From NCBI GenBank assembly GCA_963779415.1, contig CAVZYA010000002.1, positions 1,152,001 to 1,216,000 on the forward strand: a stretch of 64,000 nt of DNA, given 5' to 3'. The stretch is from an uncultured Acidobacteriota bacterium. Lineage in GTDB: Bacteria > Acidobacteriota > Thermoanaerobaculia > UBA5066. Below are positions 7,877 to 63,186 of this stretch, piece by piece. The first letter of the stretch is position 1. Each line of letters starts with the position of its first letter. The position numbers and the translations under genes are program-made. The notes under the pieces were generated by a model that saw only the letters and a program-made list of their open reading frames with translations, had not been told where the DNA came from and did not search any database.

Positions 7877-7976
7877 GTCCGGGACGATAGGAAGTTCCCC
7901 TCGAACCCGCAAGGGATCAGGAGGCCGTGGACCGAACCCGGCCCTCGGCCTCCTCGCACCTTGCCCGATGGCGACC

Positions 7977-45217: not shown

Positions 45218-46273
45218 ATGACCGGTCGTCTCCCGGCGCTCCTCGCGGCGGCGCTTCTGCTTGCCGTCCCGACGGTTCGGGGTGTCGATGTCGCGAAGGA
45301 CGAAGTGGATACCTGCCTCTCCTGTCACGGGGAGAAGAGCCTCGAGAAGAAACTGCCGAGCGGCGAGGTGAAGTCGCTCTTCGTGGACCGCGCCACCTTC
45401 GAGAAATCGGTCCACGGCGCCAAGCTGGGCTGCACCGGCTGCCACCCGGGCTACCAGGAGATTCCCCACCCCGAGCGTCCCGCGAAGGATCTCGCCTCCT
45501 TTACGGCCTCGTTCCGCGAGACGTGCCGGAGCTGCCATTTCGCCAACTACACCAAGGCCCTCGACGGCGTCCACTTCGCGGCCCTCTCGAAGGGAAACTC
45601 GGCCGCCCCCTTCTGCGTCGACTGCCACGGCTCCCACGACATCACCAAGCCCAACGAGCCGCGGACGAGGATCTCCGACACTTGCGGGACCTGCCATTCG
45701 ACCGAAGCCGAGCAGTATGCCGAGAGCGTCCACGGCAAGGCGCTCGCGGAGACGAACAACCCGGACGTTCCCGTCTGCACCGACTGCCACAAGTCGCACG
45801 CCATCGCCGACCCGAGAGGACAGACCTGGCGCATGAGCTCCCCCGAGACGTGCGGTCACTGTCACACGGACAAGGCCCGGATGGAGAAGTACGGCCTTTC
45901 GACGAACGTCTACCGTTCGTACCTCGACGACTTCCACGGCCGGAGCGCCTCGCTCATCGCAGGGCAGAAGAAGCAGGCGAAGAAGATCGTCGCCATCTGC
46001 GTCGACTGCCACGGCGTCCACGACATCGAGCGGGTGAAGGACGCGGGCTCGAAGGTCCTCAAGAAGAACCTGCAGGCGACCTGCGCGAAGTGCCATCCCG
46101 GCGCGCCGCCGAACTTCCCGGCGGCCTGGCTCTCGCACTACGAGCCGAGCCCGAAGAGAGCGCCGCTGGTCTGGGCGACGGCGCTCTTCTACCGGATTCT
46201 GATCCCCGTGATGATCGGAGGGCTCGTCCTCCAGGTCCTCCTGCACCTCTGGCGCGTGGTGGTGAACCGATGA
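45218..46273 (+). CDS. Multiheme cytochrome c (9 CxxCH) with C-terminal membrane anchor
   Basis: CLSCH, CTGCH, CRSCH, CVDCH, CGTCH, CTDCH, CGHCH, CVDCH, CAKCH; signal peptide. Confidence 0.93.
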   Translation: MTGRLPALLAAALLLAVPTVRGVDVAKDEVDTCLSCHGEKSLEKKLPSGEVKSLFVDRATFEKSVHGAKLGCTGCHPGYQEIPHPERPAKDLASFTASFRETCRSCHFANYTKALDGVHFAALSKGNSAAPFCVDCHGSHDITKPNEPRTRISDTCGTCHSTEAEQYAESVHGKALAETNNPDVPVCTDCHKSHAIADPRGQTWRMSSPETCGHCHTDKARMEKYGLSTNVYRSYLDDFHGRSASLIAGQKKQAKKIVAICVDCHGVHDIERVKDAGSKVLKKNLQATCAKCHPGAPPNFPAAWLSHYEPSPKRAPLVWATALFYRILIPVMIGGLVLQVLLHLWRVVVNR

Positions 46274-47004: not shown

Positions 47005-47955
47005 ATGTCCGGGACGCTTCTCTCCCTCGTCGTCCAGTCGGCAGCGGCCGCGGCGTCTGACCTCCGTTCTTCTGTCGACGTGGGGCGTCCGGCGCCCGGC
47101 AGCAAGACTCCGCTTCTGGCTTCTCGCTCTCGCCCTCCCCGTCGTTCTTCCGCCCCTCTTCGCGCTCGCGGCGCCGGTTCGCGCCTCGGAGCCGTTCCGG
47201 CGGAACGTGGCTCTCTTCGTCGCCACGCGCTGGGCGATGCTTCCTCTGGGAACGGGGCGTCTCGGGGGCGCCCTGGCGGCGGTCGTGGCGGCCGCCGGCC
47301 TCGCGCTCTTCCTGCGCGATCTCGTCCCGGCGCTCCGGCAGGGCTTCCACGTCCGGTCGCACGACGACGAAAGCGATCCCCGCGGGCGAGGAGATCGGGG
47401 ATCGCGTCGCGGCCCAGGCCGACCCGACGGGCGGTCGCGCCGCCGGCCACGGCCCTCGTTACGGACGACGAGGCGGCGTATCTCTACTGCCGCGGGCTCA
47501 CGCATCCGGTCGTCGCCGTCTCGACGGGCGCGCTCGCGGCGCTCTCGGACGAGGAGCTGGACGCGGCTCTCGCGCACGAAGTGGCCCACGTCGCGGGGAG
47601 GCACCTCCTCTTCGGCTGGGGCCTGATCGCCCTCCGCTCGCTCTTCTTCTTCAACCCCGTGGCCCAGATCGTCGGCCGGACGGCCGTCCTCGAGATGGAA
47701 CGCGCGGCGGACGACGATGCGGCGGCCGCGACGGGGCGCCCGGCAACCGTCGCCTCGGCGCTCGCGAAGCTCGGCGTCATGACCGACGATGACGGACTCA
47801 ACCTGCCGGGCGGCCTCCGATTCACGGCCGTCAAGGCGCGGCTCCTCCGGCTCGCGGAGCGGAAAGAAGGGATCGAAGGGGACGGTCTCGACGCCTTCCG
47901 GCTTTCCCTCGCGGGCGTGGGGATCGCTCTTCTCGTCTTCTTCGTGGTGCCGTGA
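47005..47955 (+). CDS. M56/M48 (BlaR1-like) membrane metallopeptidase, frameshifted
   Basis: VAVSTGALAALSDEELDAALAHEVAH, FFNPV, ERAADD motifs. Confidence 0.8.
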   Translation: MSGTLLSLVVQSAAAAASDLRSSVDVGRPAPGSKTPLLASRSRPPRRSSAPLRARGAGSRLGAVPAERGSLRRHALGDASSGNGASRGRPGGGRGGRRPRALPARSRPGAPAGLPRPVARRRKRSPRARRSGIASRPRPTRRAVAPPATALVTDDEAAYLYCRGLTHPVVAVSTGALAALSDEELDAALAHEVAHVAGRHLLFGWGLIALRSLFFFNPVAQIVGRTAVLEMERAADDDAAAATGRPATVASALAKLGVMTDDDGLNLPGGLRFTAVKARLLRLAERKEGIEGDGLDAFRLSLAGVGIALLVFFVVP

Positions 47956-48524
47956 GAGACGACGCCCTGGCCGTCCCGCTCCGCCCCGTCGCGGCTCTCG
48001 TCGGAAGGTTCATCGCCGTCCTCGGGGTGGTGGCCGCCTCCCTTCTCGTTCTCGATGCCGTGCCCGGGGTTCTCTCCGGTCTCGGCCGGGACGTCACCGC
48101 GTACCGGAGCGTGGAGGCGGCCGAGGCGGCGCTCGGGGCGAAGCTCCTCCTCCCCGCCTACTTCCCGGACGCGTACCGGTGGCCGCCCGAGGCGATCCGC
48201 ACCGTCTCGAAGCCGGTCCGTGCCGCGGCGCTCCTGATCGCGCCGCGCCGCGCGGGGACGGAGAAGATCCTCTTCGTCCAGTCGCTCGACGGCGACGTCG
48301 CTCTTCCCGAGTCGCTCCTTCCGGCCGGGAAAGAGGTTCATCGGGTTGCATTCGATCTCGAAGGGACTCCGGCCGTCATGGCGGACGTCATCCTTCCGCC
48401 CGACGGGACGTTCCACGACGTCGCCTTTCTCGCGGAGGGCCGGAGTATCGTCTTTCGTTTCCAGGGAGATCCCGAGGAGATCCTGAAGATGGCGGGGAGT
48501 CTCCCTCGCGGAGAGCCGCGATGA
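47952..48524 (+). CDS. Membrane-anchored hypothetical protein
   Basis: N-terminal TM segment, LLLPAYFPD; overlaps both neighbours by 4 nt. Confidence 0.75.
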   Translation: MRDDALAVPLRPVAALVGRFIAVLGVVAASLLVLDAVPGVLSGLGRDVTAYRSVEAAEAALGAKLLLPAYFPDAYRWPPEAIRTVSKPVRAAALLIAPRRAGTEKILFVQSLDGDVALPESLLPAGKEVHRVAFDLEGTPAVMADVILPPDGTFHDVAFLAEGRSIVFRFQGDPEEILKMAGSLPRGEPR

Positions 48525-50299
48525 GCGACGGGACACCGAGAACGGGGCGCCGGCTCGAAGGGCGTGCGATCGTCCTGATGATCATCGGGCTCGCCGTCCC
48601 CGCCCTTCTCTTCGGGCTCTCCGGCTTCCGGACGCTCCGGGAGTACCGGAAGGAGATCCTCGCCGAGCGCGAGAGGCTGGCGACGGCCATCGCCGGGCAC
48701 GTCAACGCGACGCTCCATGCGTCCCTCGGCGACCTCTGGGCGCTGCAGTCGGGTTCGGTCCCCGCGGAATCGGCCCGGGCACGGCTCCACGAGGCCCTGC
48801 TTCGCTCTCCCTTTCTCGACAGGGTCTGCCTCGCGAGCGCCTCGGGCGCCGTGACATGGCACGAGCCGTCTCACGCCCCGCTCCCGCCTGCCGACGCGAT
48901 CGATGCCGCGATCGCGGAGGCCCGGCGGACGTCGCAGGTGGCGTTCCGGACGGTCCCGAAGGAGCCGGCCGGCCTGGGCCTCATGATCGTCGTCCCTCTT
49001 TTCGGTTCCGGCGGGGAAGGCGCGGTCTGCGCCGGCGCCCTCCTCGACCCCGCCCGGCCGGAGCTCGCCTCGATCCTTGAGACGGGACTCGTCGGCGTCG
49101 GGGCGTCCGTGGACGTCGTGGATGCGTCGGGACGGGTCCTCGCGTCTTCCCGTGCCGGCCGGGTCGGTCTGACGGTGATGCTGCCGGCGGCGGCCGGCCG
49201 TTCGGCCGCGGCCGTCGAGCAGGGGGAGGTCGTCGCCTCCGCGCCGCTCACGATTCTTCCTCTCGCGGTCGTCGTCCGGCAGGAAGAGGAGGAGTTTCTC
49301 GCGCCGCTCCACGCGGCCGAGCGGCGCGTCCTCGTCGCGGCTCCGTTCATCCTCGTGCTCGTGATCCTCTTCGCGTGGGGTGCCGCGCGCAGCCTGACCC
49401 AGCCGATCGCGGTCCTGACGTCGGCCGCGGAGCGAATTGCCGGGGGAGAGCTCTCTCGCGAGATCCCGCCTCTCGGCGAAGACGAGGTGGGCCGCCTCGG
49501 CCGTTCGCTCGAGACGATGCGTGGCAAGCTGTCGGAGGCCTTCGAGCGCGACCGGCGCGTGCAGGAAGAGCTGGAGCGTCGCGTGACCGAGCGGACGCAC
49601 GACCTTCTGGCGCTGACCCGCGAGCTGAAGGACCGGGACGAGCGGCGGGCATGGCTTCTCGGGAAGTTCATCCGTGCGCAGGAGGAGGAGCGAAAGCGGA
49701 TCGCCCGCGAGCTTCACGACGAGACGTGCCAGACCGTGGCGGCTCTCTCCGTTGCCGTCGACACGGCGCTCGCGATGCCGCCCGATCCCGAGCGGCGCCG
49801 GCTCGGCGAGATCAAGGATCTCGCGGCCCGCGCGCTCGCGGAGGTGCACCGCGTCATCTACGATCTTCGCCCCTCGGTTCTCGACGACCTCGGCCTCGCG
49901 GCGGCCGTCCGCTGGCTCGGAGAGAGGCACCTCGCGCCGCTCGGCATCGCGTTCCGGTGCGAGATCGAAGGGCTCGACGAGCGCCTTCCCGTCGAAGTCG
50001 AGACGGCGGTCTTCCGTGTCGTCCAGGAGGCGCTCATGAACATCGTGCGCCACGCCCGGGCCGAGAGCGTCCTCGTCCAGATGGAGCGGAGGAACCACCG
50101 GCTCGAGATCGAGGTGGAGGACGACGGGCGCGGATTCGAGCCGGAGTCGGTCACGACGCCGGAGTCGTCGGGGCGCGGCTTGGGCCTTCTCGGCATCCGT
50201 GAGAGAGTCGAGCTCCTGGGAGGGAAGGTGACGATCGAATCGGCGCCGGACCAGGGAACACGCGTGGCGGTCTTCGTCCCGATCCCCGAAGGGGCCTGA
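48521..50299 (+). CDS. HAMP sensor histidine kinase (HisKA_3/NarX-like)
   Basis: EEERKRIARELHD, QEALMNIVRHA, DDGRGF, GLGLLGIRER motifs. Confidence 0.94.
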   Translation: MSDGTPRTGRRLEGRAIVLMIIGLAVPALLFGLSGFRTLREYRKEILAERERLATAIAGHVNATLHASLGDLWALQSGSVPAESARARLHEALLRSPFLDRVCLASASGAVTWHEPSHAPLPPADAIDAAIAEARRTSQVAFRTVPKEPAGLGLMIVVPLFGSGGEGAVCAGALLDPARPELASILETGLVGVGASVDVVDASGRVLASSRAGRVGLTVMLPAAAGRSAAAVEQGEVVASAPLTILPLAVVVRQEEEEFLAPLHAAERRVLVAAPFILVLVILFAWGAARSLTQPIAVLTSAAERIAGGELSREIPPLGEDEVGRLGRSLETMRGKLSEAFERDRRVQEELERRVTERTHDLLALTRELKDRDERRAWLLGKFIRAQEEERKRIARELHDETCQTVAALSVAVDTALAMPPDPERRRLGEIKDLAARALAEVHRVIYDLRPSVLDDLGLAAAVRWLGERHLAPLGIAFRCEIEGLDERLPVEVETAVFRVVQEALMNIVRHARAESVLVQMERRNHRLEIEVEDDGRGFEPESVTTPESSGRGLGLLGIRERVELLGGKVTIESAPDQGTRVAVFVPIPEGA

Positions 50300-50300
50300 C

Positions 50301-50948
50301 GTGGCGAAGATCCGCGTCGTCATCGCCGACGATCACGCCCTCCTTCGGGAAGGGATCCGCGCCCTCCTCTCCCGCGAGAGCGACATCGAGGTCGTCGGGG
50401 AGGCCCCCGACGGGCGCGAGGCGATCGCGCGCTGCCGGACGATGAAGCCGGACGTCGTCCTGATGGACATCGCGATGCCGGGACTCGGGGGCCTCGAGGC
50501 GTCGCTCGAGATCCGCAAGGAGTGTCCCGAGACCCGGATCCTCGTCCTGACGCAGTACGAGGACCGCGAGTACGTGGCCCGGTTCCTCAAGGCCGGCGCC
50601 GCGGGCTACGTCCTGAAGCGGACGGCCGGGTCGGAGCTGGCTTCGGCGATCCGGAGCGTCCACCGGGGAGGGCTCGTCCTCGATCCGCAGGTGGCGCGCG
50701 AGGCGCTTCGCGAGAACGAGCCCGCGGTCGAGGCGGGCAGCGACCGCTACGAGTCGCTCACCGACCGCGAGAAGCAGGTTCTGAAGCTCGTCGCGGAAGG
50801 GAAGAGCAACAAGGAGGTCGCCGAGCTGCTGGGGATCTCGGTGAAGACGGCGATGTCGCACCGGGAGCACGTCATGGAGAAACTGGGCCTCCACAACCGC
50901 ACCGACCTGATCCGCTTCGCCCTCAAGGCGGGCGTCATCACGTCCTGA
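50301..50948 (+). CDS. NarL/LuxR family response regulator
   Basis: ADDH, MDIAMP, LTDREKQVL HTH. Confidence 0.95.
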   Translation: MAKIRVVIADDHALLREGIRALLSRESDIEVVGEAPDGREAIARCRTMKPDVVLMDIAMPGLGGLEASLEIRKECPETRILVLTQYEDREYVARFLKAGAAGYVLKRTAGSELASAIRSVHRGGLVLDPQVAREALRENEPAVEAGSDRYESLTDREKQVLKLVAEGKSNKEVAELLGISVKTAMSHREHVMEKLGLHNRTDLIRFALKAGVITS

Positions 50949-50951
50949 GGC

Positions 50952-52151
50952 TTACTTCTTCCCGTCTTCGGGCCTGGATCTTACGCCGGGCCGACAGAGG
51001 ACGCCGCCGGGGTTTCGCGCGTAGAGAACCGGCACGGCCCAGTCGAGCGCGTCCTCTCCGAGCGTTCCGGCGAGGCCGGCGCGCGCTTCCCGGAACGCGG
51101 TCGCGACCGGAAGCCCGTCCGCGATCGCGCCGTAGAGCTCGGCCGAGAACGCGACGGCCGCATCGTCGAAGATCCGGTACTGGTTCGCGGCGACCGCCGG
51201 GAGTCCGGCGTGAGCGAGCGCGGGGGCGACGCCGCGAAGAAAGTCGCGCCGGCCGCCGCGCCCCGTTTCGCAGGCGTTCAGGACCACGAGGAGGAGTCCC
51301 CGCCCCGACGCGAAGCGGGCGAGCGCTTCGGCGGAGAGCCGTCGCGCGCGGCCCCGCCCGTCCTCCAGAAAGAGGGCGCCGCTTCGCTCCTTCTCGTCGT
51401 ACTCGCCGTGCCCGACGAAGTGAAGGACGTCGAATTTTCCGCTCCGAAGCTTTCCGTGGAGAGTCTCCGGCGTCGCCTTCGGGAGGATTTCGAGCGAGGC
51501 GGCGCCCCGCGCGAGAAGCGGCGCGAAGGCCGCCCGCAGGGAGTCCTCTTCCCGGCGTGCCGCGAGGGGAGCCATCCCCGCCGGTCGCGCGGCGGCGAAG
51601 AGGATCCGGAGGGGGCCGCGTCGCGCGCGCGGGGCCTCGGCGGGGACGGCAGAGAAGACGTTCCGGACGATCGTGGCCGGGCCGTGCGCCAGGAACGTCC
51701 GGCGCGCCGGATCGAAGGCGAGCTCCCACGGCTTCCCGGCGACCCAGTCGAGCGCGGAGGTGAAGACGAGCGGAACGGGCGCACCCGGGGAGCGGGCGAC
51801 GGCCGCATCCCAGAGGCGCCGGATGTCGCCCGGAAAGAGCGCCTCGAAGAGCGCCGTCCCGTACCGGACGAGCTCCTTCCCTCCCGGGAGCGACGAGAAC
51901 GGCGCGCGCCCGTCGAGCGCGCGGAGGAGCCGCTCGTTCAGCTCGACGATCCGGCGCATCCGCTCTCCCGCCTCGCCCCCTTTCGTCTCGAAAGGGGTCA
52001 CGACGGTCGCGCCGGCGTACGACGCGACGAGCTGGGCCTGCGAGAGAGACTCTCCCGGCGCGAGGACGACGAGGTCGAAGCGCTCCGAGGCGGGGAAGGA
52101 TGCGCGGGTCGCTCTTCGCCGCGGCAGACGGCGTCCCTCCGTGGAGTTCAT
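50952..52151 (-). CDS. CHAT (caspase-like) domain protein
   Basis: PWEL, VLHFVGHG (His), VVLNACETG (Cys), DWAVPVLY motifs. Confidence 0.88.
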   Translation of the reverse strand: MNSTEGRRLPRRRATRASFPASERFDLVVLAPGESLSQAQLVASYAGATVVTPFETKGGEAGERMRRIVELNERLLRALDGRAPFSSLPGGKELVRYGTALFEALFPGDIRRLWDAAVARSPGAPVPLVFTSALDWVAGKPWELAFDPARRTFLAHGPATIVRNVFSAVPAEAPRARRGPLRILFAAARPAGMAPLAARREEDSLRAAFAPLLARGAASLEILPKATPETLHGKLRSGKFDVLHFVGHGEYDEKERSGALFLEDGRGRARRLSAEALARFASGRGLLLVVLNACETGRGGRRDFLRGVAPALAHAGLPAVAANQYRIFDDAAVAFSAELYGAIADGLPVATAFREARAGLAGTLGEDALDWAVPVLYARNPGGVLCRPGVRSRPEDGKK

Positions 52152-52182
52152 CGTCCCCGAGTCTAACGGGGCGGGAAACGGG

Positions 52183-52731
52183 TCACTTCTTCGGGAGGAT
52201 CGTCTCGAGCTTCGAGGTCAGCTCGGCGGAGACCGGGTCCACGCGGGAGCCGAATCGCGCCACGATCCTGCCGTCCGGGCCGATCAGGAACTTGTTGAAG
52301 TTCCACGTGATGGCCCCCGCGAACCCCTCCTGCGTCGTGAGCCATCGATAGAGAGGCGCGATGTCGCTCCCCTTGACGCTGATCTTCGAGAAGATCGGAA
52401 ACGTGACGTGGTATTTCGACGTGCAGAACTGCTTGATCTCCGGATCGGTGCCGGGCTCCTGCCAGAGGAAGTTGTTCGCCGGGAAGGCGAGGACGACGAA
52501 GCCCCGGTCCCGGTACTTCTCGTAAAGCTCCTCGAGACCGGCGTACTGCGGCGTGAAGCCGCACTTCGAAGCCGTGTTGACGACGAGGACGACCTGCCCC
52601 TTGAAGGCCGAGAGCGGCTGCTCCACGCCGTCGACCGTCTTCATCGTAAAGTCGAAGAGGGTGGTCGGGGTGGCCGCGGCCGAAGCCCGTGTGACTGCGA
52701 CGAGGGCAAGGAGCGTGACCGCCGTCTTCAT
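52183..52731 (-). CDS. Glutathione peroxidase family protein, exported
   Basis: VNTASKCGFTPQY, AFPANNF, WNFNKFLI motifs; signal peptide. Confidence 0.95.
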   Translation of the reverse strand: MKTAVTLLALVAVTRASAAATPTTLFDFTMKTVDGVEQPLSAFKGQVVLVVNTASKCGFTPQYAGLEELYEKYRDRGFVVLAFPANNFLWQEPGTDPEIKQFCTSKYHVTFPIFSKISVKGSDIAPLYRWLTTQEGFAGAITWNFNKFLIGPDGRIVARFGSRVDPVSAELTSKLETILPKK

Positions 52732-52758
52732 GGGTTTCTCTTTTCTCCTTCGGGGAAC

Positions 52759-54513
52759 CTACGACACCGTGGGTGCTGCCGGATGGCACCCGGCCGCCTC
52801 CGGCCGGGTCTCGCCCGACAGCGCCGACGCCTCCAGCACCAGGCTCCGTTGGCGAAACAGCTCGTCCAGCTGCTGTCGGACCGCCGCCTCTCCCTCCTGA
52901 CGGCGGCGGTGGCCCGCATCGACCGCCCCCAGGACGTCCTGCCGCATGCCGTCCAGTCGAACCCGCATTCCCGTCTCGAGCTGCCGGGTCAGTGCGTCTA
53001 TCCAGTCGATGAGGTGCTTGTCGATCTCGTGAAGATTGGTTCGCAGCCACTCCCGGGCGAGCGCCTCGGAACGGTCGGACGCCCTCCGGACGACGGCCCG
53101 CCTCGGGGAAAAAGTATCGAGAATCGGGATCACCCACGCCTCGACATCGAGGGCCTGCACCGGCTCGACGAACTCGAAGATCATCGCCTGCGGATCGATC
53201 GTCAGGACCTCGGGCTCGAAGCGCGCCACGGGGATGTCGAACGCCTTCGCCGCCGCCTCCGCGGTCCGGTCGATCAGGCGGTTGGTCTCGGCGCTCACAC
53301 GCTCGATCTGCTCGGCGCGGTGCCGGTCGAACTCCTCGGTGGCCCGCTTGGCCGAGTCGTCGACGAGCTTCCTGACCTCCCCGTAGGCGATCTCGCGGGC
53401 CATGCCGCGGATGCGCCCGGCACCGGCTCGGCGGCTCCGCCCGGCGGCGCGCTCGACCTCCCGGCCGATCCCGCGGACGACTTCACCCAGGAGTTCGGTC
53501 CCCCGGGCTTCCCACGCCTCCCAATCGAACCCGAAATCGGACTTGACGCGGGTGCACGCCGCGAGGACCAGGTCGTCGATGTCCCGCATGGCTTCGCGGA
53601 AGCCGTCGATCCGGCGGCCGATCTCCTCGAGCGGGGCCACGAGGACGGCGCGCTCGAGGTCGAGCTGCTGCAGCAGGTGGGCTGCGATGTGGCGTATCGC
53701 GCGCCTCGCCGATGCCTGGGCCAGCTCGGCGCCGGAGCGGGTCGCGAGCGCGGACAGCTCGAGGAGGACCGCGGAGACGCCGGGGTCCGCCCCGTCGCGA
53801 AGCGCCGCACGCGCGGAAGCGTGGATCAGGACGCCGGGGTCGTGGCCGAGCGCGCCCTGCAGGACCTGCCGCGTGAACGCCTCGGCCTTCAACCGCGTCG
53901 CCTCGCGCACCCGGTCGGACTTGTTGAGGACGATGCAGAGCCGCCCGACGTCGGGCGCCACGGCCTTTACCAGCCCGAGCTCCTCGCCCGAGATCGGCGG
54001 GTCCGAGCCCAGCACGACGACCGCGACGTCGATGCGGGGCAGGAACGAGCGGGTCACCTCGGAGTTGCTCGTAAAGACGCTTCCGACGCCGGGTGTGTCG
54101 ACGAGCCGGATGCCGGTGGCAAGGAGCGCAGCGGGAAGCTCGATCCGGACGACCCGGACACCCTTCCGGTTGCCCGGGTTCTCCTCCTCGGAGACGAAGA
54201 GGCGGACCTGGTCGACCCCGATCTCCTCCTCGCGACCGTCCTCGAACCGGACGCTCGCGCGCTCGGCCGGACCGTGCTCGACGAGCGTGATCGCGGTGGT
54301 GATGGGCGCCACGTCGGTGGGCAGGAGCTCCCGGCCGAGCAGGGCGTTGATCAGGGTGCTTTTGCCGCGCTTGAACTGACCCATCACCGCGACGTTGAAC
54401 CGACGAAGGGCCAGGGCCTCGCGGATCTCACGTGCCTCGGCGAGAATCCCTTCCTGCTTCCGCTTGCCGGCGACGAGCTCGAGATTCCGTAAGGCCTGTT
54501 GTTCCGCCTGCAT
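52759..54513 (-). CDS. Bacterial dynamin-like GTPase (paralog A)
   Basis: G1 GQFKRGKST, G2 PITT, G3 DTPG, G4 NKSD; helical C-terminal stalk. Confidence 0.9.
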   Translation of the reverse strand: MQAEQQALRNLELVAGKRKQEGILAEAREIREALALRRFNVAVMGQFKRGKSTLINALLGRELLPTDVAPITTAITLVEHGPAERASVRFEDGREEEIGVDQVRLFVSEEENPGNRKGVRVVRIELPAALLATGIRLVDTPGVGSVFTSNSEVTRSFLPRIDVAVVVLGSDPPISGEELGLVKAVAPDVGRLCIVLNKSDRVREATRLKAEAFTRQVLQGALGHDPGVLIHASARAALRDGADPGVSAVLLELSALATRSGAELAQASARRAIRHIAAHLLQQLDLERAVLVAPLEEIGRRIDGFREAMRDIDDLVLAACTRVKSDFGFDWEAWEARGTELLGEVVRGIGREVERAAGRSRRAGAGRIRGMAREIAYGEVRKLVDDSAKRATEEFDRHRAEQIERVSAETNRLIDRTAEAAAKAFDIPVARFEPEVLTIDPQAMIFEFVEPVQALDVEAWVIPILDTFSPRRAVVRRASDRSEALAREWLRTNLHEIDKHLIDWIDALTRQLETGMRVRLDGMRQDVLGAVDAGHRRRQEGEAAVRQQLDELFRQRSLVLEASALSGETRPEAAGCHPAAPTVS

Positions 54514-54565
54514 GCCGCTCCCCGCGGCCGAGCCCGGCCCGGGCCGCCTGACACCGCCTTACTGT

Positions 54566-54615
54566 GTAGGGGTCATCAGCGGTCGAACGCCGCGATTATG
54601 GCGGACTCCATCGCC
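54566..54615 (-). ncRNA. Fluoride (crcB-motif) riboswitch
   Basis: Minus strand GGCGATGGAGTCCGCCATAATCGCGGCGTTCGACCGCTGATGACCCCTAC: stem GGCG/CGCC, stem GCGG/CCGC, GCTGATG, pseudoknot GGAGTC/GACCCC. Confidence 0.88.
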
Positions 54616-54621
54616 GGCGGA

Positions 54622-54630
54622 AGCCTAGCA
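54622..54630 (-). promoter_or_regulatory. Extended -10 promoter feeding the riboswitch
   Basis: TGCTAGGCT on the minus strand, 6 nt before the first G of the aptamer. Confidence 0.55.
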
Positions 54631-54701
54631 GCCCGTGAGAAAAGTCGGAAGGGTCGCAAGGGCTCCTGGAATCGGCGTGAGATCTGGACTATGAAGAGGG
54701 G

Positions 54702-55847
54702 ATGAGACGGCGGATTCGCGCGCTCCTCCGGCACCCGGTCGTCCGGATGCTTCTCTTCGAGCGCTTTCTGATCACCGGCTCCGCCACCCTGGCGTTCTCC
54801 GCGCTCGCGATGGGGCGCGTCCGGCCCGGGGAGGTCGGGGCCCTCATGGACTGGCGGATCCTGACGCTCTTTTTCGTCCTGACCGTCGCGGTCGAGCTGG
54901 GGAAGGCCTCCGATCTGTTCGACCGGCTGGTCGTCTTCGTCATTCGGCGCGTCCGTTCGGTGCGAGGGCTGGCCTTCGCCATGGCCGGCGTCACCGGCGG
55001 GCTCTCCGCGATCCTGACGAATGACGTGACGCTCTTCCTCGTCGTGCCGTTCACGATGTCGTTCGGCAGCGTGGACGGGGTCGAACTGCACAAGCTCGTC
55101 GTCATCGAGGTGCTCGCGGCGAACCTCCTCGGCGCCGTCACGCCGATCGGAAACCCGCAGAATCTCTTCCTCTACGCGCGGGGCGGCTTTTCGCCCGCGT
55201 CCTTTCTGGAGACGCAGCTCCCGCTCGTCGGAGCGTCGGCCGTCCTTCTCGCGGCGGCCATTCTTCTCTTCATCCCGCGCCAGGAGATCACGCCGCCGGC
55301 CACCGCGTCGTTCGACGTCGACCCGGTGCTGGCCGGCGGCTTCTTCCTTCTTCTCGCCGCCGAGGTCGGCAGTCTTCTCGGGCCGCTGCCGCATCTCGTT
55401 CCGCTCGCCCTGGCTCTCCCGTCCGCGCTCCTCCTCGGGCGGCGGCTCAAGGAGGCGGACTTCTCGATCGTCATGGTCTTCGCGCTTCTCTTCATCGGCA
55501 TTCCCGGCCTGGAACGGGGCCGGCTCTACCACCACATCGATCCCGGGGTCCTCTTCGGGCACCACGCCGTCGGACTCCTCCTCTCCGGCGCCCTGCTTTC
55601 GCAGCTCGTGTCCAACGTTCCGGCCGCCCTGCTCCTGGCGCCGGCCGTCATGGGGCCGCAGGGGTTCCACGGCCTTCTCTACGGGGTCACGGCCGGGGCG
55701 TGCGGAAGCCCCATCGGCTCGATCGCGAACCTGATCGGGGCTCAGATCTACGTGGCCGAGGGAGGAAATCCCCGAACGTTCTGGCGATTCTTCTGCGGAA
55801 TCTCAGCCGTCATCCTGATTGCGCTCGTCGTCTTCGCGGCTCTCCTG

Positions 55848-55868
<21 letters not shown>
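54702..55868 (+). CDS. SLC13/ArsB-NhaD (YbiR-like) anion permease
   Basis: LSAILTND, TPIGNPQNL, SQLVSNVPA, GSIANLI motifs; many TM helices. Confidence 0.88.
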
Positions 55869-57961
<2,093 letters not shown>

Positions 57962-57965
57962 TCAC

Positions 57966-60041
57966 TCATGGCGCTCTCGGCGCGGCCTTCATTTCGCCGG
58001 CCTGCGGAGGGGCGTTTCGCTCGAACGGCTCGAGCGCCTGAAGGTCCGCCCGGAGCTTCGCCCGAGCCGCCTGATCCTGGGACGACTCGCCGCCTCGCGC
58101 CTCGCGCGCGAACGGCTCCGTGGCTCCGTGGTAGGCGCCCGCCAGGTGCTCTACGGCGTGGTCGGCCCAGTCCCTCAGCCGGTAGCCGTAGACGCGAAGA
58201 GCCTCGCGGAGCGGAACTCGGTGCGAGCCCTGAAGGCGATTGAGGAGGCGCTGCGCCGCCCACCCGGGTACGACCCCAAGGAGGAGCGGACGGCCGAGCC
58301 TCCGCTCCGGGAGCGGACCCGAAAGGTCCGCGGCGGGGAGCCCGGTGAAGTCCGGCGTGGCACGGCTCGCCGCGAAGACTTCCGAGGCCGCCGGGGCCAC
58401 GGCTGCGGCGGAAGTGGAGAGCCCGCGGTGCAGGCCCCGGAGCGCCTCGACGATGCCGCCGCGGACCGCGCCGGTCAGCAAGTCGGCGGCGAGGCCGACG
58501 AGGGCGCGCGCCTCGAGCGGCCCCGTCTCCCCCTCGTTCCAGCGCCGGACACCGTCCGAGACGGCCGCGATCAGGATCTCTCTCCAGCGCTCCTGGAGCC
58601 CGTCGGCCGCCTGCACGACCGTCCGGTGCGTCTCGGCAACGAGAGCATCCGCGCGGCGCCTCTCCTCGGAGGCGGAGCCGCTCCGGGCACTCGCGCCGTC
58701 GCCGGCGCGCACGCGGAGCGCCGCCGTCACCCCTTCGAGGAGCCGGCCCGCCATCCGGCGGATCGACTCCTCCACCAGCTCCTTCCGGCGCGCGAAGAGC
58801 GGGGCGAGCTTCGTCTCGAACCATTTCTTCACCAGTGGGCGCCCTTCGTCGATCGCGCTGACCAGGCTCACCGAGACGGAGGCCCCGAGCTCTCGCGCCA
58901 GTCCTTCCTCGACGTACCGCTTCACCTTCGATTGCGCTTCCTCGTGCACGAGGTCGGCCTTGCTGATCAGGATTTCCACGGGAATGGCGGCATCCCGGAA
59001 GAGATGGAGCAGTCCCCTCTCGTCCGGCCCGGGGGCCGAGCCGACGTCGAGAAGAAGAAGCGCGAGATCGGTTCGCGGCAGGTAGGCGAAAGCCTCCTCC
59101 GCTCCCGCAGTGGCGAGCGAGCCGATCCCGGGGGTATCGACCAGCTCGACGCCCTCGGGGAGGCCGGGCGCCGGAAAGACGACCTCGAGCCGCGCGACGC
59201 GCTTCACGTTTCCGGGGTTCTCCTCCTCCGAGGCGAGTTCCACGAGACGCGCAAGCGGAAGCGTCTCGCTCCGGCCGTCGGCGTAGCGGACCCGGGCCTC
59301 CGGCGGCGTGCCGACGTGGACACGGGCCGGCACCGCCGTCACCGGCGTCACGCCGACCGGGAGGATCGGCGCCCCGAGCAGGGCGTTGAGGAGCGACGAC
59401 TTTCCCGAGCCGACGCGCCCGAAGACCGCGACGTGGAAGCTCTGCTCCTCCATCCGCTCGAGGAGCGAGCGGAACAGCCGCCGGAACTCCACGAGAGAGT
59501 CCTCGCGGATGACGCGCTCGAGGAGGGAGAGCAGCGCGGGCTCGACGGCGGTCCGGCCGAGTCGTGCGAGGCGGTCTCCGAACTCCTCCTCGGGGCCCCC
59601 GCTCAGAAAGCGCGAAAGATCGCGGAGCGTCCGGTCGATCTCGTCACACGTCCGGTCGACCTCCGCGGCGAGCCGCGGGTCGAGCGCCCCGTAGCCGCGA
59701 AGTCGCCGAGGCCTCACGTCGTCGACCCCGATCGACGCCATTGCCGCCCGGACCGCGATGGCGTGGCGGGCGTCGAGCGGCGATCCGGCGGGATCGAGCC
59801 CGTGCCGCCCGGCGGCGGCGAGGAGCGCCCGGCGCGCTCGCTCGATGTAGTCATTGATCAGACCCGCCTGGGCCGGCGAGATGTCGCCGACGAGCGGGTT
59901 GAAGGGCGACGGATGCCGGACCGCGACGAGGATCCCCTCGATGTCGTCCAGAAGGCCGGCGATGTGCCGTACCGCCGCCGACAGGCTCCGCCGCTGGGAT
60001 TCGTTGAGCCGGGGTTCCGGGCCCTCCGCGGGCGCCGACAT
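57966..60041 (-). CDS. Bacterial dynamin-like GTPase (paralog B, N-terminal helical extension)
   Basis: G1 GRVGSGKSS, G2 PVTA, G3 DTPG, G4 SKAD; shares SEEENPGN with paralog A. Confidence 0.9.
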   Translation of the reverse strand: MSAPAEGPEPRLNESQRRSLSAAVRHIAGLLDDIEGILVAVRHPSPFNPLVGDISPAQAGLINDYIERARRALLAAAGRHGLDPAGSPLDARHAIAVRAAMASIGVDDVRPRRLRGYGALDPRLAAEVDRTCDEIDRTLRDLSRFLSGGPEEEFGDRLARLGRTAVEPALLSLLERVIREDSLVEFRRLFRSLLERMEEQSFHVAVFGRVGSGKSSLLNALLGAPILPVGVTPVTAVPARVHVGTPPEARVRYADGRSETLPLARLVELASEEENPGNVKRVARLEVVFPAPGLPEGVELVDTPGIGSLATAGAEEAFAYLPRTDLALLLLDVGSAPGPDERGLLHLFRDAAIPVEILISKADLVHEEAQSKVKRYVEEGLARELGASVSVSLVSAIDEGRPLVKKWFETKLAPLFARRKELVEESIRRMAGRLLEGVTAALRVRAGDGASARSGSASEERRRADALVAETHRTVVQAADGLQERWREILIAAVSDGVRRWNEGETGPLEARALVGLAADLLTGAVRGGIVEALRGLHRGLSTSAAAVAPAASEVFAASRATPDFTGLPAADLSGPLPERRLGRPLLLGVVPGWAAQRLLNRLQGSHRVPLREALRVYGYRLRDWADHAVEHLAGAYHGATEPFAREARGGESSQDQAARAKLRADLQALEPFERNAPPQAGEMKAAPRAP

Positions 60042-60058
60042 CGCGCCTACTCCGCCCG

Positions 60059-60121
60059 CTACTTCACGACGATGACGGCGCGGCGAACGCTACGGCTATC
60101 GAAGGATTCCGAAACCGGCAC
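60059..60121 (-). CDS. Candidate 20-aa leader ORF between riboswitch and dynamin B
   Basis: AAGGAG, 8 nt, GTG; reads VPVSESFDSRSVRRAVIVVK*. Confidence 0.4.
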   Translation of the reverse strand: MPVSESFDSRSVRRAVIVVK

Positions 60122-60141
60122 GGGAGAGACTCCTTTCGTCG

Positions 60142-60186
60142 GTAGGAGTCATCAGCCCGAAGGCGGTTCCGGCGAACTCCATCGCC
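60142..60186 (-). ncRNA. Fluoride (crcB-motif) riboswitch
   Basis: Minus strand GGCGATGGAGTTCGCCGGAACCGCCTTCGGGCTGATGACTCCTAC: stem GGCGA/TCGCC, GCC-TTCG-GGC hairpin, pseudoknot GGAGTT/GACTCC. Confidence 0.93.
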
Positions 60187-60199
60187 TCTCTTCGGGACG

Positions 60200-60205
60200 A
60201 TTATA
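60200..60205 (-). promoter_or_regulatory. -10 box feeding the riboswitch
   Basis: Perfect TATAAT on the minus strand, 13 nt before the aptamer. Confidence 0.6.
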
Positions 60206-60234
60206 GGGGGTCCGAGTCTGTTAACGTCGCGCCC

Positions 60235-60618
60235 GTGCGGCCCGCTCTCGTCGTCCTCGTCTTCGTCGGCGGCGGCATCGGATCAATCTGCCGCTACGCG
60301 CTGGCGACGAGCCTCCAACGGAGCTTCGCCGGACCGTTTCCGGTCGGCACGTTTGTCGTAAACCTCGCCGGCTGCTTCGCGATCGGCCTCGTCGGGGCGC
60401 TCGGCCTCGAGCGCGCGGCGATCTCCCCCGAGGCGCGTGTCTTCCTGATGGTGGGGATCCTCGGCGGCTTCACCACCTTTTCGTCGTTCACATGGGAAAC
60501 ACTCGGGCTTCTCACCGTGCGCGACATCCTTCGCGCCACGCTCTACGTCATGGGCTCGGTCTTCCTCGGACTCTTCGGCGCGTGGCTCGGGCGGCTCCTC
60601 GGGAGGGTCGGAACATGA
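60235..60618 (+). CDS. crcB: Fluoride channel Fluc/CrcB
   Basis: GGGIGSICRY, FPVGTFVVN, GILGGFTTFSSF motifs. Confidence 0.96.
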   Translation: MRPALVVLVFVGGGIGSICRYALATSLQRSFAGPFPVGTFVVNLAGCFAIGLVGALGLERAAISPEARVFLMVGILGGFTTFSSFTWETLGLLTVRDILRATLYVMGSVFLGLFGAWLGRLLGRVGT

Positions 60619-60968
60619 AGGATCTCGCGATGGCCAAGCTGCTCCGGATTCACTTCGGAGAGGGGGATCGGGTCCGCCATCAGCCGCTCTATGAAGCGCT
60701 CGTGGCCGAAGCGCGAGCCACGGGCCTCGCCGGGGCCACGGTCCTTCGGGGCATCGAGTCGTACGGGGCGTCGAGCGTCGTCCACCGATCGCGTATCGTC
60801 GAGCTGTCGGAGGACCTTCCGATCGTCGTCGAGATCGTGGATGCCGAGGAGAAGGTCCGGGCCTTTCTCGAGCGCGTCGACCCCCTCCTCGAAGAGGCCG
60901 GGTGCGGCATCCTGATGACAATGGAAAAGGTCGAGATCGTCCGTTACGCGGCGAAGAAGAAGAGCTGA
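60615..60968 (+). CDS. DUF190 (PII-like) protein
   Basis: LLRIHFGEGD, GLAGATVLRGIESYG, LSEDLPIVVEIVD motifs; the usual crcB neighbour. Confidence 0.92.
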   Translation: MKDLAMAKLLRIHFGEGDRVRHQPLYEALVAEARATGLAGATVLRGIESYGASSVVHRSRIVELSEDLPIVVEIVDAEEKVRAFLERVDPLLEEAGCGILMTMEKVEIVRYAAKKKS

Positions 60969-60977
60969 GCCGGCGCT

Positions 60978-62105
60978 TCAGCGCGCGGCCTTCTCCACCT
61001 TCCGGATCCGGTTGTTCTGCGCGTCGAGGATGTAGAGATTCCCGTCGCGGTCGAAGCCGAGCCCCGCCGGACCGTTCAGCCGGGCTTTCGTGGCCGGCCC
61101 GCCGTCCCCGTCGAAGCCCGCCATCTCCATCTCGCCATAGCGGTTTACTCGGCCGCTCCCGACGCGCGTCTCGATGATGCCCGTCTTCGCGTCCACGCGC
61201 CGGATGACATTGTTTCCCCAGTCGACGAACCAGATGTCGTCCCCGCGATCGAGGGCGACGGCCGTGGGGTTGTTGAGCCGCGCGGCGAGAGCCGGCCCGT
61301 CGTCTCCCGTGAGGCCGAAGCGCATCGTCCCCGCGATGCGTGTCAGTTCGTCCGTCACGGGGTTCACCTTCATCAGGACGTGATCGTCGGTCGCGGAGAA
61401 GATGACGTCGCCCTTCCCGTCGATCCGGACGGCGGTGGGAAGAGCCAGCCCCGTGTCGGTCCCTTTCCTCGTGTCGATCCGGAGCGAGACCGTACCGTTG
61501 CCGACGATCGTCCGGACGATTCCGGTCTTCGCGTCGACCTCGAGAAGCCGGTCCGCATACGGATCCATGACGAAGAAGTTCCCGGCGGCGTCGAAGGCGA
61601 TGCCGAGGGGACGGCCCACCGGCGTGGCCTTCGCCGTCGAGCCGTCGGCCGTGAACGAGACGAACCCGGTCCCCATGAAGGTGTCGATGACGCCGCTCTT
61701 CGCGTCGATGCGCCGGACTCGGTTGTTTCCGAGGTCCGAGACGTAGAGATTCCCCGCCGCGTCGAACGCGAGGTCGCCCGGCTCCCGGAGCTTCGCCGAC
61801 TTGGCGGGGCCGCCGTCCCCCGAGAAGCCCTCTTCCCCGGTTCCGGCCACGGTGAAGATCCGCCCGCTCTTCCGGTCGATCCGACGGACCCGGTTCGTTC
61901 CGGATTCCGAGAAGACGAGGTTCCCGTCCCGGTCGAAGACGACGCCCGCGGGCGTCCGTCTCAGCATCGAGAGGGGCGACTCGGTGGCGAGGACGCCGTC
62001 GGGCCCCGCGCCCTGCTCTCCGTTGCCGGCGAACGTCGTGATCGTCTGGGCGCCGGCGGCCGCGGCGGAGAGGAGCAGGGAGGCGACGGGGAGGAGGCTT
62101 CTCAT
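60978..62105 (-). CDS. Secreted NHL-repeat protein
   Basis: Repeated TVAGTG..GFSGDGGPA..A.L..P..LAFD..GNLY units; signal peptide. Confidence 0.9.
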   Translation of the reverse strand: MRSLLPVASLLLSAAAAGAQTITTFAGNGEQGAGPDGVLATESPLSMLRRTPAGVVFDRDGNLVFSESGTNRVRRIDRKSGRIFTVAGTGEEGFSGDGGPAKSAKLREPGDLAFDAAGNLYVSDLGNNRVRRIDAKSGVIDTFMGTGFVSFTADGSTAKATPVGRPLGIAFDAAGNFFVMDPYADRLLEVDAKTGIVRTIVGNGTVSLRIDTRKGTDTGLALPTAVRIDGKGDVIFSATDDHVLMKVNPVTDELTRIAGTMRFGLTGDDGPALAARLNNPTAVALDRGDDIWFVDWGNNVIRRVDAKTGIIETRVGSGRVNRYGEMEMAGFDGDGGPATKARLNGPAGLGFDRDGNLYILDAQNNRIRKVEKAAR

Positions 62106-62154
62106 CTCCGCCGATTCTGTCAGAGGTCCCCGTCGGGCACGGTAGCATCGCGCC

Positions 62155-63186
62155 ATGGGGACGCCCGGGTCCGTTCTCCGCCGCGAGATCGCGGAACAGC
62201 CGGATGCCGTGGCGCGCCTCCTTTCCCGCGAAGGAGCGCGGGTCGCGCGCCTCGCGGCGCCGATCCGCCGCTCCGGCGTCCGCTTCGTCCTCGTCGCCGC
62301 GCGCGGGACCTCCGACAACGCGGCCCGCTACTCGCAATACCTCTTCGGCATCCTGGACGGCCTTCCGGTCGCGCTCGCGGCCCCCTCGCTCACGACTCTT
62401 TACGGGCGCCCTCCGGATCCGCGGGGCGGCCTCGTCATCGGGATCTCGCAGTCGGGGCGCTCGCCCGACATCGTGGAGACCATCGCCGCCGCGCGGCGGA
62501 GAGGGGCGCCGACCCTCGCGATCGTCAACGACCCGGAGAGCCCGCTCGCCCGCGCCGCCTCCGAGGTGATCCCGCTTCACGCCGGCGAGGAGCGGAGCGT
62601 CGCGGCGACGAAAAGCTACACGACGCAGCTCGCGGCGGTGGCGCTCCTCGCCCTGTCGCTCGCGGGGAAGCGAGCGCTTCTGAAGAAGCTCGCCGCCGTT
62701 CCCGAGGCGATGGCCGTTGCCCTCGCGACCGATCCGGCCGTCCGCCGGATGGCGCGGTGCCTCGCCACGGCGTCGCGTGCGGTCGTCCTCGCCCGTGGAA
62801 TCAACTACCCGACCGCATGGGAGATCGCTCTGAAGCTGAAGGAGCTGGCGCTGATCCTCGCCGAGCCCTATTCGTCGGCCGATTTCCAGCACGGACCGAT
62901 CGCGCTCGCCGAGCCGGATCTCCCGGCCATCCTCGTCTCGGCGCCCGGGGGCCGCCCCGAGCGGGAGCTGCTCGCTCTCGCCCGGAAGCTGCGGGAGCGC
63001 GGGAGCCCGCTTTTTCCGATCGGCCTCCCTCTCCCCGGGGCGATTCCGCTCCCCCAGACGCCGGAGCTTCTCTCGCCCCTCGTCGCCGTCCTCCCCGGAC
63101 AGCTCCTCGCGTTCCACGCGGCGCGCGCGCGGGGTCTCGATCCGGACGCTCCGCGCGGCCTGAAGAAGGTCACCGAGACGCTCTGA
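62155..63186 (+). CDS. SIS-domain sugar isomerase (GlmS C-terminal-like)
   Basis: EIAEQP, RGTSDNA, SQSGRSPD, ATKSY, LKLKE, HGP, LKKVTET motifs. Confidence 0.9.
   Translation: MGTPGSVLRREIAEQPDAVARLLSREGARVARLAAPIRRSGVRFVLVAARGTSDNAARYSQYLFGILDGLPVALAAPSLTTLYGRPPDPRGGLVIGISQSGRSPDIVETIAAARRRGAPTLAIVNDPESPLARAASEVIPLHAGEERSVAATKSYTTQLAAVALLALSLAGKRALLKKLAAVPEAMAVALATDPAVRRMARCLATASRAVVLARGINYPTAWEIALKLKELALILAEPYSSADFQHGPIALAEPDLPAILVSAPGGRPERELLALARKLRERGSPLFPIGLPLPGAIPLPQTPELLSPLVAVLPGQLLAFHAARARGLDPDAPRGLKKVTETL

Follow-up and report, generated by a model that had tools for sequence, protein, structure and literature searches.

Fluoride riboswitches head genes for a subfamily of bacterial dynamin-like GTPases in an uncultured Acidobacteriota bacterium and its relatives

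The cellular roles of bacterial dynamin-like proteins (BDLPs) are, to our knowledge, poorly defined, and we know of few that have an established inducing signal. In mycobacteria, the BDLP IniA is encoded in the iniBAC operon, which is induced by chemical envelope stress, and contributes to tolerance; the inducers of iniBAC are cell-wall antibiotics, which act via a protein regulator. DynA of Bacillus subtilis has a membrane repair and fusion phenotype. Here we describe a locus at which this protein superfamily meets the fluoride riboswitch, in a 64,000-nucleotide stretch of DNA (the window) from an uncultured Acidobacteriota bacterium (GenBank assembly GCA_963779415.1, contig CAVZYA010000002.1, positions 1,152,001 to 1,216,000 of the forward strand). 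Two fluoride riboswitch aptamers, RS1 and RS2, each head an operon in which the first full-length gene encodes a dynamin-like GTPase, DynA and DynB respectively.

The classes of gene that a 2024 review assigns to fluoride-riboswitch regulons are CrcB, enolase, Na+/H+ exchanger, pyrophosphatase, MutS-related proteins and Usp (PMC11139923), and the 2010 paper in which the crcB motif was first described names associations with mutS, K+/Cl- transport and formate hydrogen lyase (PMC2864571). The words dynamin and GTPase are absent from the main text of both papers, and a full-text search of the literature returned no paper linking dynamins with fluoride riboswitches, although a gene table may already list such GTPases. 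The riboswitch and the protein superfamily are each known, but we have not found the link that joins them here described, and the BDLP subfamily concerned is defined by its inducer. This inducer, fluoride, is chemically defined, easily applied and encoded in the leader RNA in several phyla, which makes the function of these BDLPs directly testable.

Riboswitch-led dynamin-like genes and their recurrence

A scan of the whole window with Rfam at gathering threshold, which for RF01734 is 34 bits, gave exactly two matches, both to this fluoride riboswitch family and both above the cut-off (Table 1). The original prediction, made from the sequence of the window, had placed crcB-motif aptamers at 60142-60186 and 54566-54615; these are the cores of the Rfam matches, and the covariance model bears it out at both sites. 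By Rfam score RS1 and RS2 can be regarded as genuine fluoride riboswitches, RS1 matching the consensus throughout its alignment, including helices P1 and P2 and the pseudoknot strands GGAGU and ACUCC. They are the sole RF01734 matches across the whole 4.36-Mb genome (4,359,815 bases in 3 contigs, 92.4% complete). Pfam Dynamin_N, with a cut-off of 27 bits, has four matches genome-wide, of which the two strong ones (94.2 and 79.6 bits) are the riboswitch-led genes and the others score 27.4 and 25.3 bits; hence, the only two fluoride switches of the genome head its only two clear dynamin-like genes. That each aptamer is followed by a dynamin-like gene as the first full-length gene had been predicted, and is upheld by the Dynamin_N matches of DynA and DynB within the window; the term 'full-length' is accurate at RS1, where a 20-codon leader open reading frame (ORF) precedes DynA.

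The same arrangement recurs beyond the window. Among 61 relatives belonging to the same order, RF01734 is found in 22 genomes with 32 matches, and 19 of these, distributed over 16 of the 22 genomes, lead a dynamin-like gene according to tblastn and gene maps. We then drew on an even sample of the phylum comprising 151 genomes, the window genome included, in which 66 of 73 RF01734 rows reach the cut-off and were used, representing 46 genomes. A same-strand gene of the subfamily lies within 8 kb downstream, the distance applied in this tally, for 26 of the 66 aptamers (24/46 genomes). A DynB-type profile matched in 40 genomes of this sample, and 46 of its 55 rows were used, the other nine being second pieces of frames already counted. 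When matches of 150 bits or more are taken as strong, an aptamer is situated upstream on the same strand of 28 of the 31 strong matches, compared with none of the 15 weaker matches, which represent other BDLP families; a covariance-model scan of approximately 1-3.5 kb on each side of these 15 other loci found nothing better than E 0.2. Full-length DynA-type genes are present in 5 of the 151 genomes, and all five have an aptamer 110-539 nt upstream.

A pattern scan of public species-representative genomes gave at least 591 relatives, from which the best 80 loci were analysed with up to 5 kb of DNA on either side. Here, aptamers were identified with a covariance model (R1) built from 30 aptamers of the relatives (alignment A2), the E-values of which are rough; one of the 30 rows comes from locus L019 of genome G037, a riboswitch followed by CrcB and DUF190 without a dynamin, and G037 otherwise counts as one genome in the tallies, with no claim resting on it. 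R1 gave 88 matches, with at least one in 64 of the 80 loci; the aptamer is upstream on the dynamin strand in 59, and within 400 nt of the start of the match in 20. Operon strings, which were composed by tblastn with a panel of 20 proteins, most often place DynB directly after the riboswitch (26 loci), followed by the orders riboswitch, DynA, CrcB, DUF190, DynB (13 loci) and riboswitch, CrcB, DUF190, DynB (10 loci). All 13 loci titled as other phyla contain RF01734 above the Rfam cut-off at the positions found by R1; their titles are Binatia, Thermodesulfobacteriota, Aquificales, Deltaproteobacteria, Desulfobacteraceae, Gemmatimonadales, Gemmatimonadaceae, Methylomirabilia, Kofleriaceae, Myxococcales and an unclassified bacterium.

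On these comparative counts (16 of 22 relatives; 28 of 31 strong matches against 0 of 15) we reject chance adjacency; with the loci from other phyla, they strongly corroborate the view of the original prediction that the linkage is selected. The counts are in effect the survey of Dynamin_N genes behind fluoride riboswitches that the prediction had proposed. That the BDLP subfamily belongs to the fluoride regulon, by a link both recurrent and specific to it, is strongly supported by comparative sequence analysis. Several observations weigh on the other side, and the linkage is not absolute. Three of the 31 strong matches have no aptamer: one is at a contig end, one belongs to a genome with no aptamer match, and the third is a CrcB, DUF190, DynB operon (L141) with no aptamer in approximately 1.4 kb upstream of CrcB. 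Among the best 80 loci, 21 have no upstream same-strand aptamer; since a same-strand DynA, CrcB or DUF190 gene is found upstream in 14 of these, and the full DynA, CrcB, DUF190 set in 8 of the 14, the leader may lie beyond the DNA examined. Ranking of the best 80 loci relied on their similarity to a query made from riboswitch-linked proteins, and these loci are mostly metagenome-assembled genomes (MAGs) of one phylum; for these reasons they are not independent, and genes outside the 20-protein panel are invisible in their operon strings. Kin genomes, likewise, are not independent, and most records are MAGs. The least biased evidence is the even-sample test together with its control of other BDLPs.

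The frequent company of CrcB raises the question of whether the subfamily serves the channel itself, by inserting, clustering or stabilising the dual-topology Fluc/CrcB protein together with DUF190, such that control by the riboswitch would be acquired from crcB operons. In 35 of the best 80 loci CrcB precedes DynB on the same strand, and the L141 operon, in which no riboswitch is seen in the examined DNA, implies that a link to CrcB is possible without the switch. However, no panel gene stands between riboswitch and DynB in the 26 loci with the direct arrangement, and in the window and its genus the BDLP is under the riboswitch while CrcB is divergent and outside its control. The link between switch and BDLP is therefore independent of co-transcription with crcB, and we regard service to the channel as very unlikely.

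Operon context in the window and its relatives

RS1 heads an operon on the minus strand that begins with a TATAAT and comprises the aptamer, the leader ORF, DynA, a gap of 100 nt, enolase and a YfcE-family phosphodiesterase, the start of which overlaps the enolase stop by 4 nt (Table 1). The second operon, also on the minus strand, consists of RS2, DynB, a 27-nt gap, a glutathione-peroxidase-like gene, a 31-nt gap and a gene encoding a CHAT protein. Genes were called with our own ORF finder, based on third-position GC content (GC3), and named from Pfam and NCBIfam. The enolase is a second copy, being 58% identical to another on the same contig (G000:C2:49341-50597). The score of the glutathione-peroxidase-like gene falls below the NF007900 equivalog cut-off of 270 bits, and no Pfam match was obtained when a longer ORF was scanned. 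Fluc/CrcB, DUF190 and enolase had been predicted within the same 10 kb; all are present by Pfam and the enolase, moreover, is within the RS1 operon.

Table 1. Features of the window (positions count from its first letter), with the evidence for each.
Feature	Position	Strand	Evidence and remarks
RS1, fluoride riboswitch aptamer	60136..60195	minus	RF01734, 57.3 bits, E 2.8e-13, full model 1-64
TATAAT, candidate -10	60200..60205	minus	5 nt upstream of the RS1 Rfam match
RS1 expression platform	60128..60150	minus	7-bp helix in minimum-free-energy and centroid leader folds
Leader ORF, 20 codons	60059..60121	minus	GTG start 8 nt after Shine-Dalgarno sequence; stop 17 nt before DynA ATG
DynA-type BDLP, 691 aa	57966..60041	minus	Dynamin_N, 75.9 bits (Pfam)
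Enolase	56552..57865	minus	Enolase_N and Enolase_C; TIGR01060, 651 bits
YfcE-family metallophosphoesterase	55848..56555	minus	Metallophos_2; TIGR00040, 60.8 bits (cut-off 56.25)
RS2, fluoride riboswitch aptamer	54560..54624	minus	RF01734, 47.3 bits, E 5.5e-10, model 1-64 of 64
DynB-type BDLP, 584 aa	52759..54513	minus	Dynamin_N, 90.8 bits (Pfam)
Glutathione-peroxidase-like gene	52183..52731	minus	NF007900, E 1.3e-48, 164.9 bits
CHAT-domain (caspase-like) protein	50952..52151	minus	PF12770, 117.3 bits; last in RS2 operon
CrcB/Fluc fluoride channel	60235..60618	plus	PF02537, 96.7 bits; divergent from RS1
DUF190 protein	60615..60968	plus	PF02641, 117 bits; downstream of CrcB; start from GC3 gene call
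CitMHS/NhaD-like transporter	54702-55868	plus	Between operons, convergent to operon 1
NarL-type response regulator	50301-50948	plus	Flanks operon 2
Histidine kinase	47789-50299	plus	HAMP/HisKA_3; flanks operon 2
Multihaem cytochrome c	45218-46273	plus	Beside operon 2

The aptamer of RS1 is separated from the start of crcB by approximately 40 nt (60196-60234), and control of CrcB by RS1 was considered and ruled out, the aptamer being on the strand opposite crcB; because the channel genes are divergent, RS1 cannot control CrcB-DUF190 here. TATAAT and its complement ATTATA are both found between RS1 and crcB, and could constitute a back-to-back promoter. Throughout the window genus the fluoride channel is outside riboswitch control and the dynamin is under it, and the sister genus has the same order, with the riboswitch followed by the dynamin and CrcB-DUF190 divergent. 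Within the genus, in the interval of G003 (L038) that corresponds to window positions 50301-62318, a single riboswitch leads a dynamin of 571 aa and CHAT, and the genes on either side are those of the window; an additional insert of approximately 5.6 kb in the window contains CitMHS, YfcE, enolase, DynA and RS1. Between DynB of the window and the syntenic gene of G003, identity is 34% across 542 residues (blastp) and 41% across a segment of 300 residues (tblastn; range 33-41%), and this low identity suggests replacement by a different DynB clade in the window. Three genomes of the genus have a CHAT gene next to the riboswitch-led dynamin, downstream of it in the window genome (G000) and in G003 and divergent from it in G001; besides that of the window, CHAT coordinates are 1368-2528 in L034 and 6864-8048 in L038.

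The relatives also show other arrangements. In G041 the riboswitch is followed by CrcB, DUF190, DynB, DynA and an MFS gene, in G057 by DynB and DynA, and in G001 by an Na+/H+ exchanger, Usp and DynA, with a MutS pair, enolase and YfcE further along. G012 possesses a 16-kb island with five riboswitches (L031, G012:C32:76000-95999), which lead, respectively, DynA-MFS, a MutS-domain pair, a cyclopropane-fatty-acid synthase (CMAS), the set DynB-CrcB-DUF190-Na+/H+ exchanger-DynB, and the set AAA/phosphodiesterase/pyrophosphatase. In many of the loci L050-L118, which have operons of Terriglobia type, there are three consecutive tblastn matches to DUF190 between CrcB and DynB, representing either three genes or one multi-domain protein.

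The original prediction interpreted DynA and DynB as a pair that had been split, and the comparative data support this. In G041 and G057 a single riboswitch heads an operon in which DynB-type and DynA-type genes are neighbours, and DynA is upstream of DynB on the same strand in 27 of the best 80 loci; within the 151-genome sample, DynA-type genes co-occur with DynB-type in four of five genomes, the fifth DynA copy ending at a contig edge. In the window, 3.4 kb separates the two genes, each of which is in its own operon. A pair is not, however, a requirement: DynB-type genes are often found without DynA-type, the DynB profile being strong in many more than 5 of the 151 genomes, and because so many genomes carry DynB-type alone the pair must be considered optional. 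Where both occur, we propose, by analogy, that DynA and DynB may form a heterotypic pair. A maximum-likelihood tree of 77 sequences recovered one DynA clade with 100% support and three DynB clades, and DynB of the window groups with G001, G012, L040 and L141 in one that is small and divergent. Non-riboswitch BDLPs of the phylum are located on the other side of the tree; the separating branch, where the root was placed, is weak (52).

Other genes in the islands of the relatives and in the best 80 loci include CrcB, DUF190, enolase, an Na+/H+ exchanger with Usp, pyrophosphatase and MutS-domain pairs. CMAS is of particular relevance to the membrane: in G012 it is alone under its own riboswitch (L031; riboswitch 7304-7367, CMAS 7392-8606), in L076 and L095, too, a riboswitch lies upstream of it, and in L087 it directly follows a riboswitch-led DynB, from which it appears that membrane lipid modification is fluoride-controlled too. 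Pairs of MutS-domain-V proteins, each of approximately 500-560 aa, occur behind fluoride riboswitches at L033 9920-13122, L031 4097-7212 and in several of L039-L118; like BDLPs they are P-loop NTPases, and they agree with the mutS association named in the 2010 paper (PMC2864571).

Such neighbours admit a reading in which fluoride acts on the GTPase. Metal fluorides trap GTPases, with GDP and Mg- or Al-fluoride mimicking the transition state, and such complexes might lock the dimers of G-domains; the induced BDLPs could then replace poisoned capacity, or could use the trapped state as a fluoride-triggered tether. In keeping with this, other P-loop NTPases (the MutS-domain pairs and an AAA_16 protein) are behind fluoride riboswitches in islands of the relatives, and fluoride-inhibited enzymes (enolase, pyrophosphatase) occur in the same operons as spare copies; overexpression is also one response to fluoride inhibition named in PMC11139923. 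Nonetheless, the genome has no other strong dynamin for which to compensate, and no G-motif change specific to the subfamily was identified, and we judge the two variants, taken together, to be quite unlikely.

Leader control, protein fold and candidate functions

Folding of the leaders points to control of translation. In the minimum-free-energy and centroid folds of RS1, the 3' pseudoknot strand of the aptamer, GACUCCU (60150-60144), pairs with the Shine-Dalgarno sequence (SD) AGGAGUC (60134-60128), and a leader of 96 nt folds with a z of -2.18, 6 of 200 shuffles folding as well. On this model RS1 should be an ON switch at the level of translation, in which fluoride binding frees the SD. The SD on the riboswitch side serves the leader ORF and not DynA directly, which has its own GGAG and ATG, 17 nt past the leader-ORF stop. 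The DynA leader of G012 has the same SD-pairing design as RS1, CUCCUAG facing CUAGGAGG, and a leader ORF of 29 codons (L031 3732-3821, minus), the TGA of which overlaps the DynA GTG. The leader ORF was considered as a conserved peptide and this was ruled out, the peptides of the window and G012 being unrelated. What has been kept would appear to be translation of a leader as such, in agreement with either coupling of translation or protection against premature termination, and RS1 would then exemplify riboswitch action by way of a leader ORF to which the main gene is coupled. The DynB ATG, preceded by GGGGAG, is 46 nt from the end of the RS2 aptamer; in the fold, the aptamer tail pairs with G-rich sequence further downstream, and part of this GGGGAG SD is covered by a second hairpin. 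Terminator-type control was rejected because a scan of 50500-61200 found two sites, both inside genes, compared with a shuffle mean of 4.8. Each riboswitch, most likely, acts on translation.

Against an inducible leader at each operon stand several results. The RS2 pseudoknot strand is ACCCC in place of ACUCC, leaving one A.C mismatch. The RS1 leader extended to 146 nt folds no better than shuffles (z -0.65), and neither do the RS2 leaders (125 nt, z -0.55; 81 nt, z +0.14). Over 50500-61200, a scan for consensus sigma-70 promoters returned 0 sites, and neither leader contains a terminator-like site. A -10 box had been predicted before each aptamer; this holds at RS1, where there is a perfect TATAAT (60205-60200) with no -35 at sigma-70 spacing, whereas the sequence before RS2 is only TGcTAGGCT (54630-54622). 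The ACCCC variant recurs in the leader of the RS2 ortholog in G001 (L030 1501-1565, minus), and the mismatch may tune the fluoride affinity of the DynB operon.

Both proteins have complete GTPase signatures, as had been predicted. These consist of G45..K51-S52, T72, D139xxG142 and N197-K198-x-D200 in DynB, and of G208..K214-S215, T235, D302xxG305 and S360-K361-x-D363 in DynA, and the G1-G4 residues are invariant in 44 DynB-type sequences (alignment A4) and 16 DynA-type sequences (alignment A3). A4 combines 37/79 clean ORFs from the 80 loci with 7 from the window and relatives, L039 and L091 being left out because their ORF coordinates held a stop. DynA comprises an N-terminal helical domain of approximately 200 aa, the GTPase domain and a helical stalk; the N-terminal domain is kept in 16 of 16 DynA-type sequences, while the DynB type is without the extension. 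A frame of 364 aa in another genome (G169:C35:19693-20142) matches only the DynA-type N-terminal domain, at profile positions 3-152, and may represent this domain as a stand-alone protein.

AlphaFold2 (AF2) models made with the family alignments have a pLDDT of 86.3 and pTM of 0.71 for DynB and a pLDDT of 77.5 for DynA, and both consist of a GTPase domain followed by long helical bundles. By sequence, DynA and DynB match Nostoc BDLP (2j68), Campylobacter jejuni DLP2/DLP1 (5owv), Mycobacterium smegmatis IniA (6j72) and mitofusins in the PDB, 2j68 being the top match of DynB (E 1.9e-16). By structure, Foldseek aligns them with IniA, Nostoc BDLP, SynDLP and Cj-DLP1/2 over 580-730 columns, which is essentially full length, at a probability of 1.00, and the top match is to IniA in both cases (DynB to 6j72 with E 1.7e-19 over 603 columns; DynA with E 1.3e-16); the TM scores, at 0.27-0.47, are modest owing to differing domain angles, which is to be expected of hinged proteins. 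Neither protein is represented by a model in NCBIfam, where only partial matches the size of a P-loop were obtained. By domain, motifs and modelled fold, DynA and DynB can be classed as bacterial dynamin-like proteins, and binding of the membrane by both is plausible.

We infer that fluoride turns the BDLP genes on and that their products act on the cytoplasmic membrane. When fluoride is absent, the aptamer 3' strand would pair with the SD; when fluoride is present, that strand would be drawn into the pseudoknot and the ribosome-binding site freed, so that opening of RS1 would permit translation of the leader ORF, coupled to DynA, and opening of RS2 would permit that of DynB directly. In other genomes, DynA and DynB would be co-transcribed with Fluc (CrcB) and DUF190, whereas in the window they are split, each with its own switch. 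As fluoride accumulates, entering as HF, the GTPases would attach to the cytoplasmic membrane, which they would repair, tether or reshape, preserving the potential and barrier needed by Fluc export and pH homeostasis, alongside the spare enolase, the phosphoesterase and the peroxidase. Taken as a whole, the locus is, we consider, probably best explained as two fluoride-inducible, translation-controlled BDLP operons acting on the membrane.

For the function itself, the original prediction had offered membrane repair, vesicle shedding and compensation for Mg-fluoride trapping as options; surveillance, repair or remodelling of the membrane is our tentative preference, at somewhat short of even odds. 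It is favoured by the closest structural relatives, which are membrane-acting BDLPs, by the CMAS under its own fluoride switch in G012, by the need of Fluc export and pH homeostasis for a membrane that is intact and energised, and by the entry of fluoride as HF at low pH, as given in PMC11139923. Pointing the other way, neither DynA nor DynB has a hydropathy segment of transmembrane grade; hydrophobic and aromatic residues at the stalk tips lie in loops of low confidence (DynB ~425-470, DynA ~559-591); and the membrane function would be drawn from analogy with other BDLPs. Together, the BDLP and the riboswitch-controlled CMAS point to the membrane as a target of fluoride/HF stress, beside enolase, pyrophosphatase and pH homeostasis.

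The structural likeness to IniA leads to a proposal of vesicle-based disposal, in which the BDLPs would drive fission and shed vesicles containing damaged membrane or metal-fluoride complexes. IniA, the closest solved relative by fold, is one of several BDLPs (IniA/IniC and LeoABC) linked to membrane fission and vesicle release, and co-transcription with Fluc and DUF190 in 13 + 10 of the best 80 loci puts the BDLPs at fluoride handling. Yet there are no recognisable cargo or vesicle genes in the operons examined, Fluc exports fluoride efficiently such that a vesicle route is not obviously needed, and fission cannot be separated from fusion or repair by sequence alone; we consider this proposal unlikely. 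A role in cytokinesis or at the nucleoid, that is, in division or chromosome handling during fluoride-induced growth arrest, would have precedents in Streptomyces DynA/DynB and Escherichia coli CrfC, which have division and nucleoid roles. DynB has a weak, partial NCBIfam match to CrfC (31.5 bits, the cut-off being 1146) and MutS-domain genes occur in the same islands, but the CrfC match spans only the P-loop region (residues 38-88), the operons examined contain no division or replication genes, and the best full-length folds are the membrane-acting IniA and BDLP, making such a role highly improbable.

A bolder reading would have DynA, DynB, Fluc and DUF190 constitute one physically coupled, fluoride-triggered membrane machine. 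Conceivably, GDP and metal fluoride might gate the BDLPs, tethering or sealing the membrane where HF enters, or the BDLPs might pinch off fluoride-laden membrane. A machine of this kind seems to us rather doubtful; if true, it would be the first case in which a physiological trigger and a client are defined for a pair of bacterial dynamins.

Comparison with known systems

Among described BDLPs, DLP1 and DLP2 of C. jejuni (PDB 5owv, 5oxf) offer the nearest parallel to the pair, being two paralogous BDLPs encoded together, of which one is longer. Like the longer partner, DynA has an N-terminal helical extension that places its P-loop near 208 (the 5owv_A match covers chain residues 150-217), and like the other partner, DynB is shorter, with its P-loop near 45 (5owv_C residues 63-224) and full-length fold matches. 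They differ in that identity in the fold alignments is 12-15%, that DynA and DynB are putative binding partners, and that DynB-type proteins often stand alone; we know of no link between Cj-DLP1/2 and fluoride. In Nostoc punctiforme BDLP (2j68/2j69) and B. subtilis DynA, as in the window proteins, a Dynamin_N GTPase precedes a helical neck and trunk. However, matches to NF052648, the equivalog model for B. subtilis DynA, are confined to the P-loop (54.6 and 40.5 bits, the cut-off being 1600), and the window proteins are single-GTPase proteins, not the two-in-one fusion, and do not belong to that family. IniA (PDB 6j72/6j73), although the best fold match of both proteins, is 16-18% identical to them, belongs to another phylum and has other operon partners, and the inducer here would be fluoride, sensed by an RNA.

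As a fluoride riboswitch regulon, the locus resembles those already described in that its aptamers pass the cut-off, are situated in 5' leaders and are accompanied by known regulon members. It differs in three respects: control is apparently translational, through SD pairing (at RS1 via the leader ORF) and with no terminator; the channel is outside riboswitch control in the window genus; and the first regulated gene is a dynamin-like GTPase. With approximately 40% of the sampled phylum aptamers (26/66) leading operons that contain a BDLP, this subfamily would be a large and seemingly overlooked member of the fluoride regulon.

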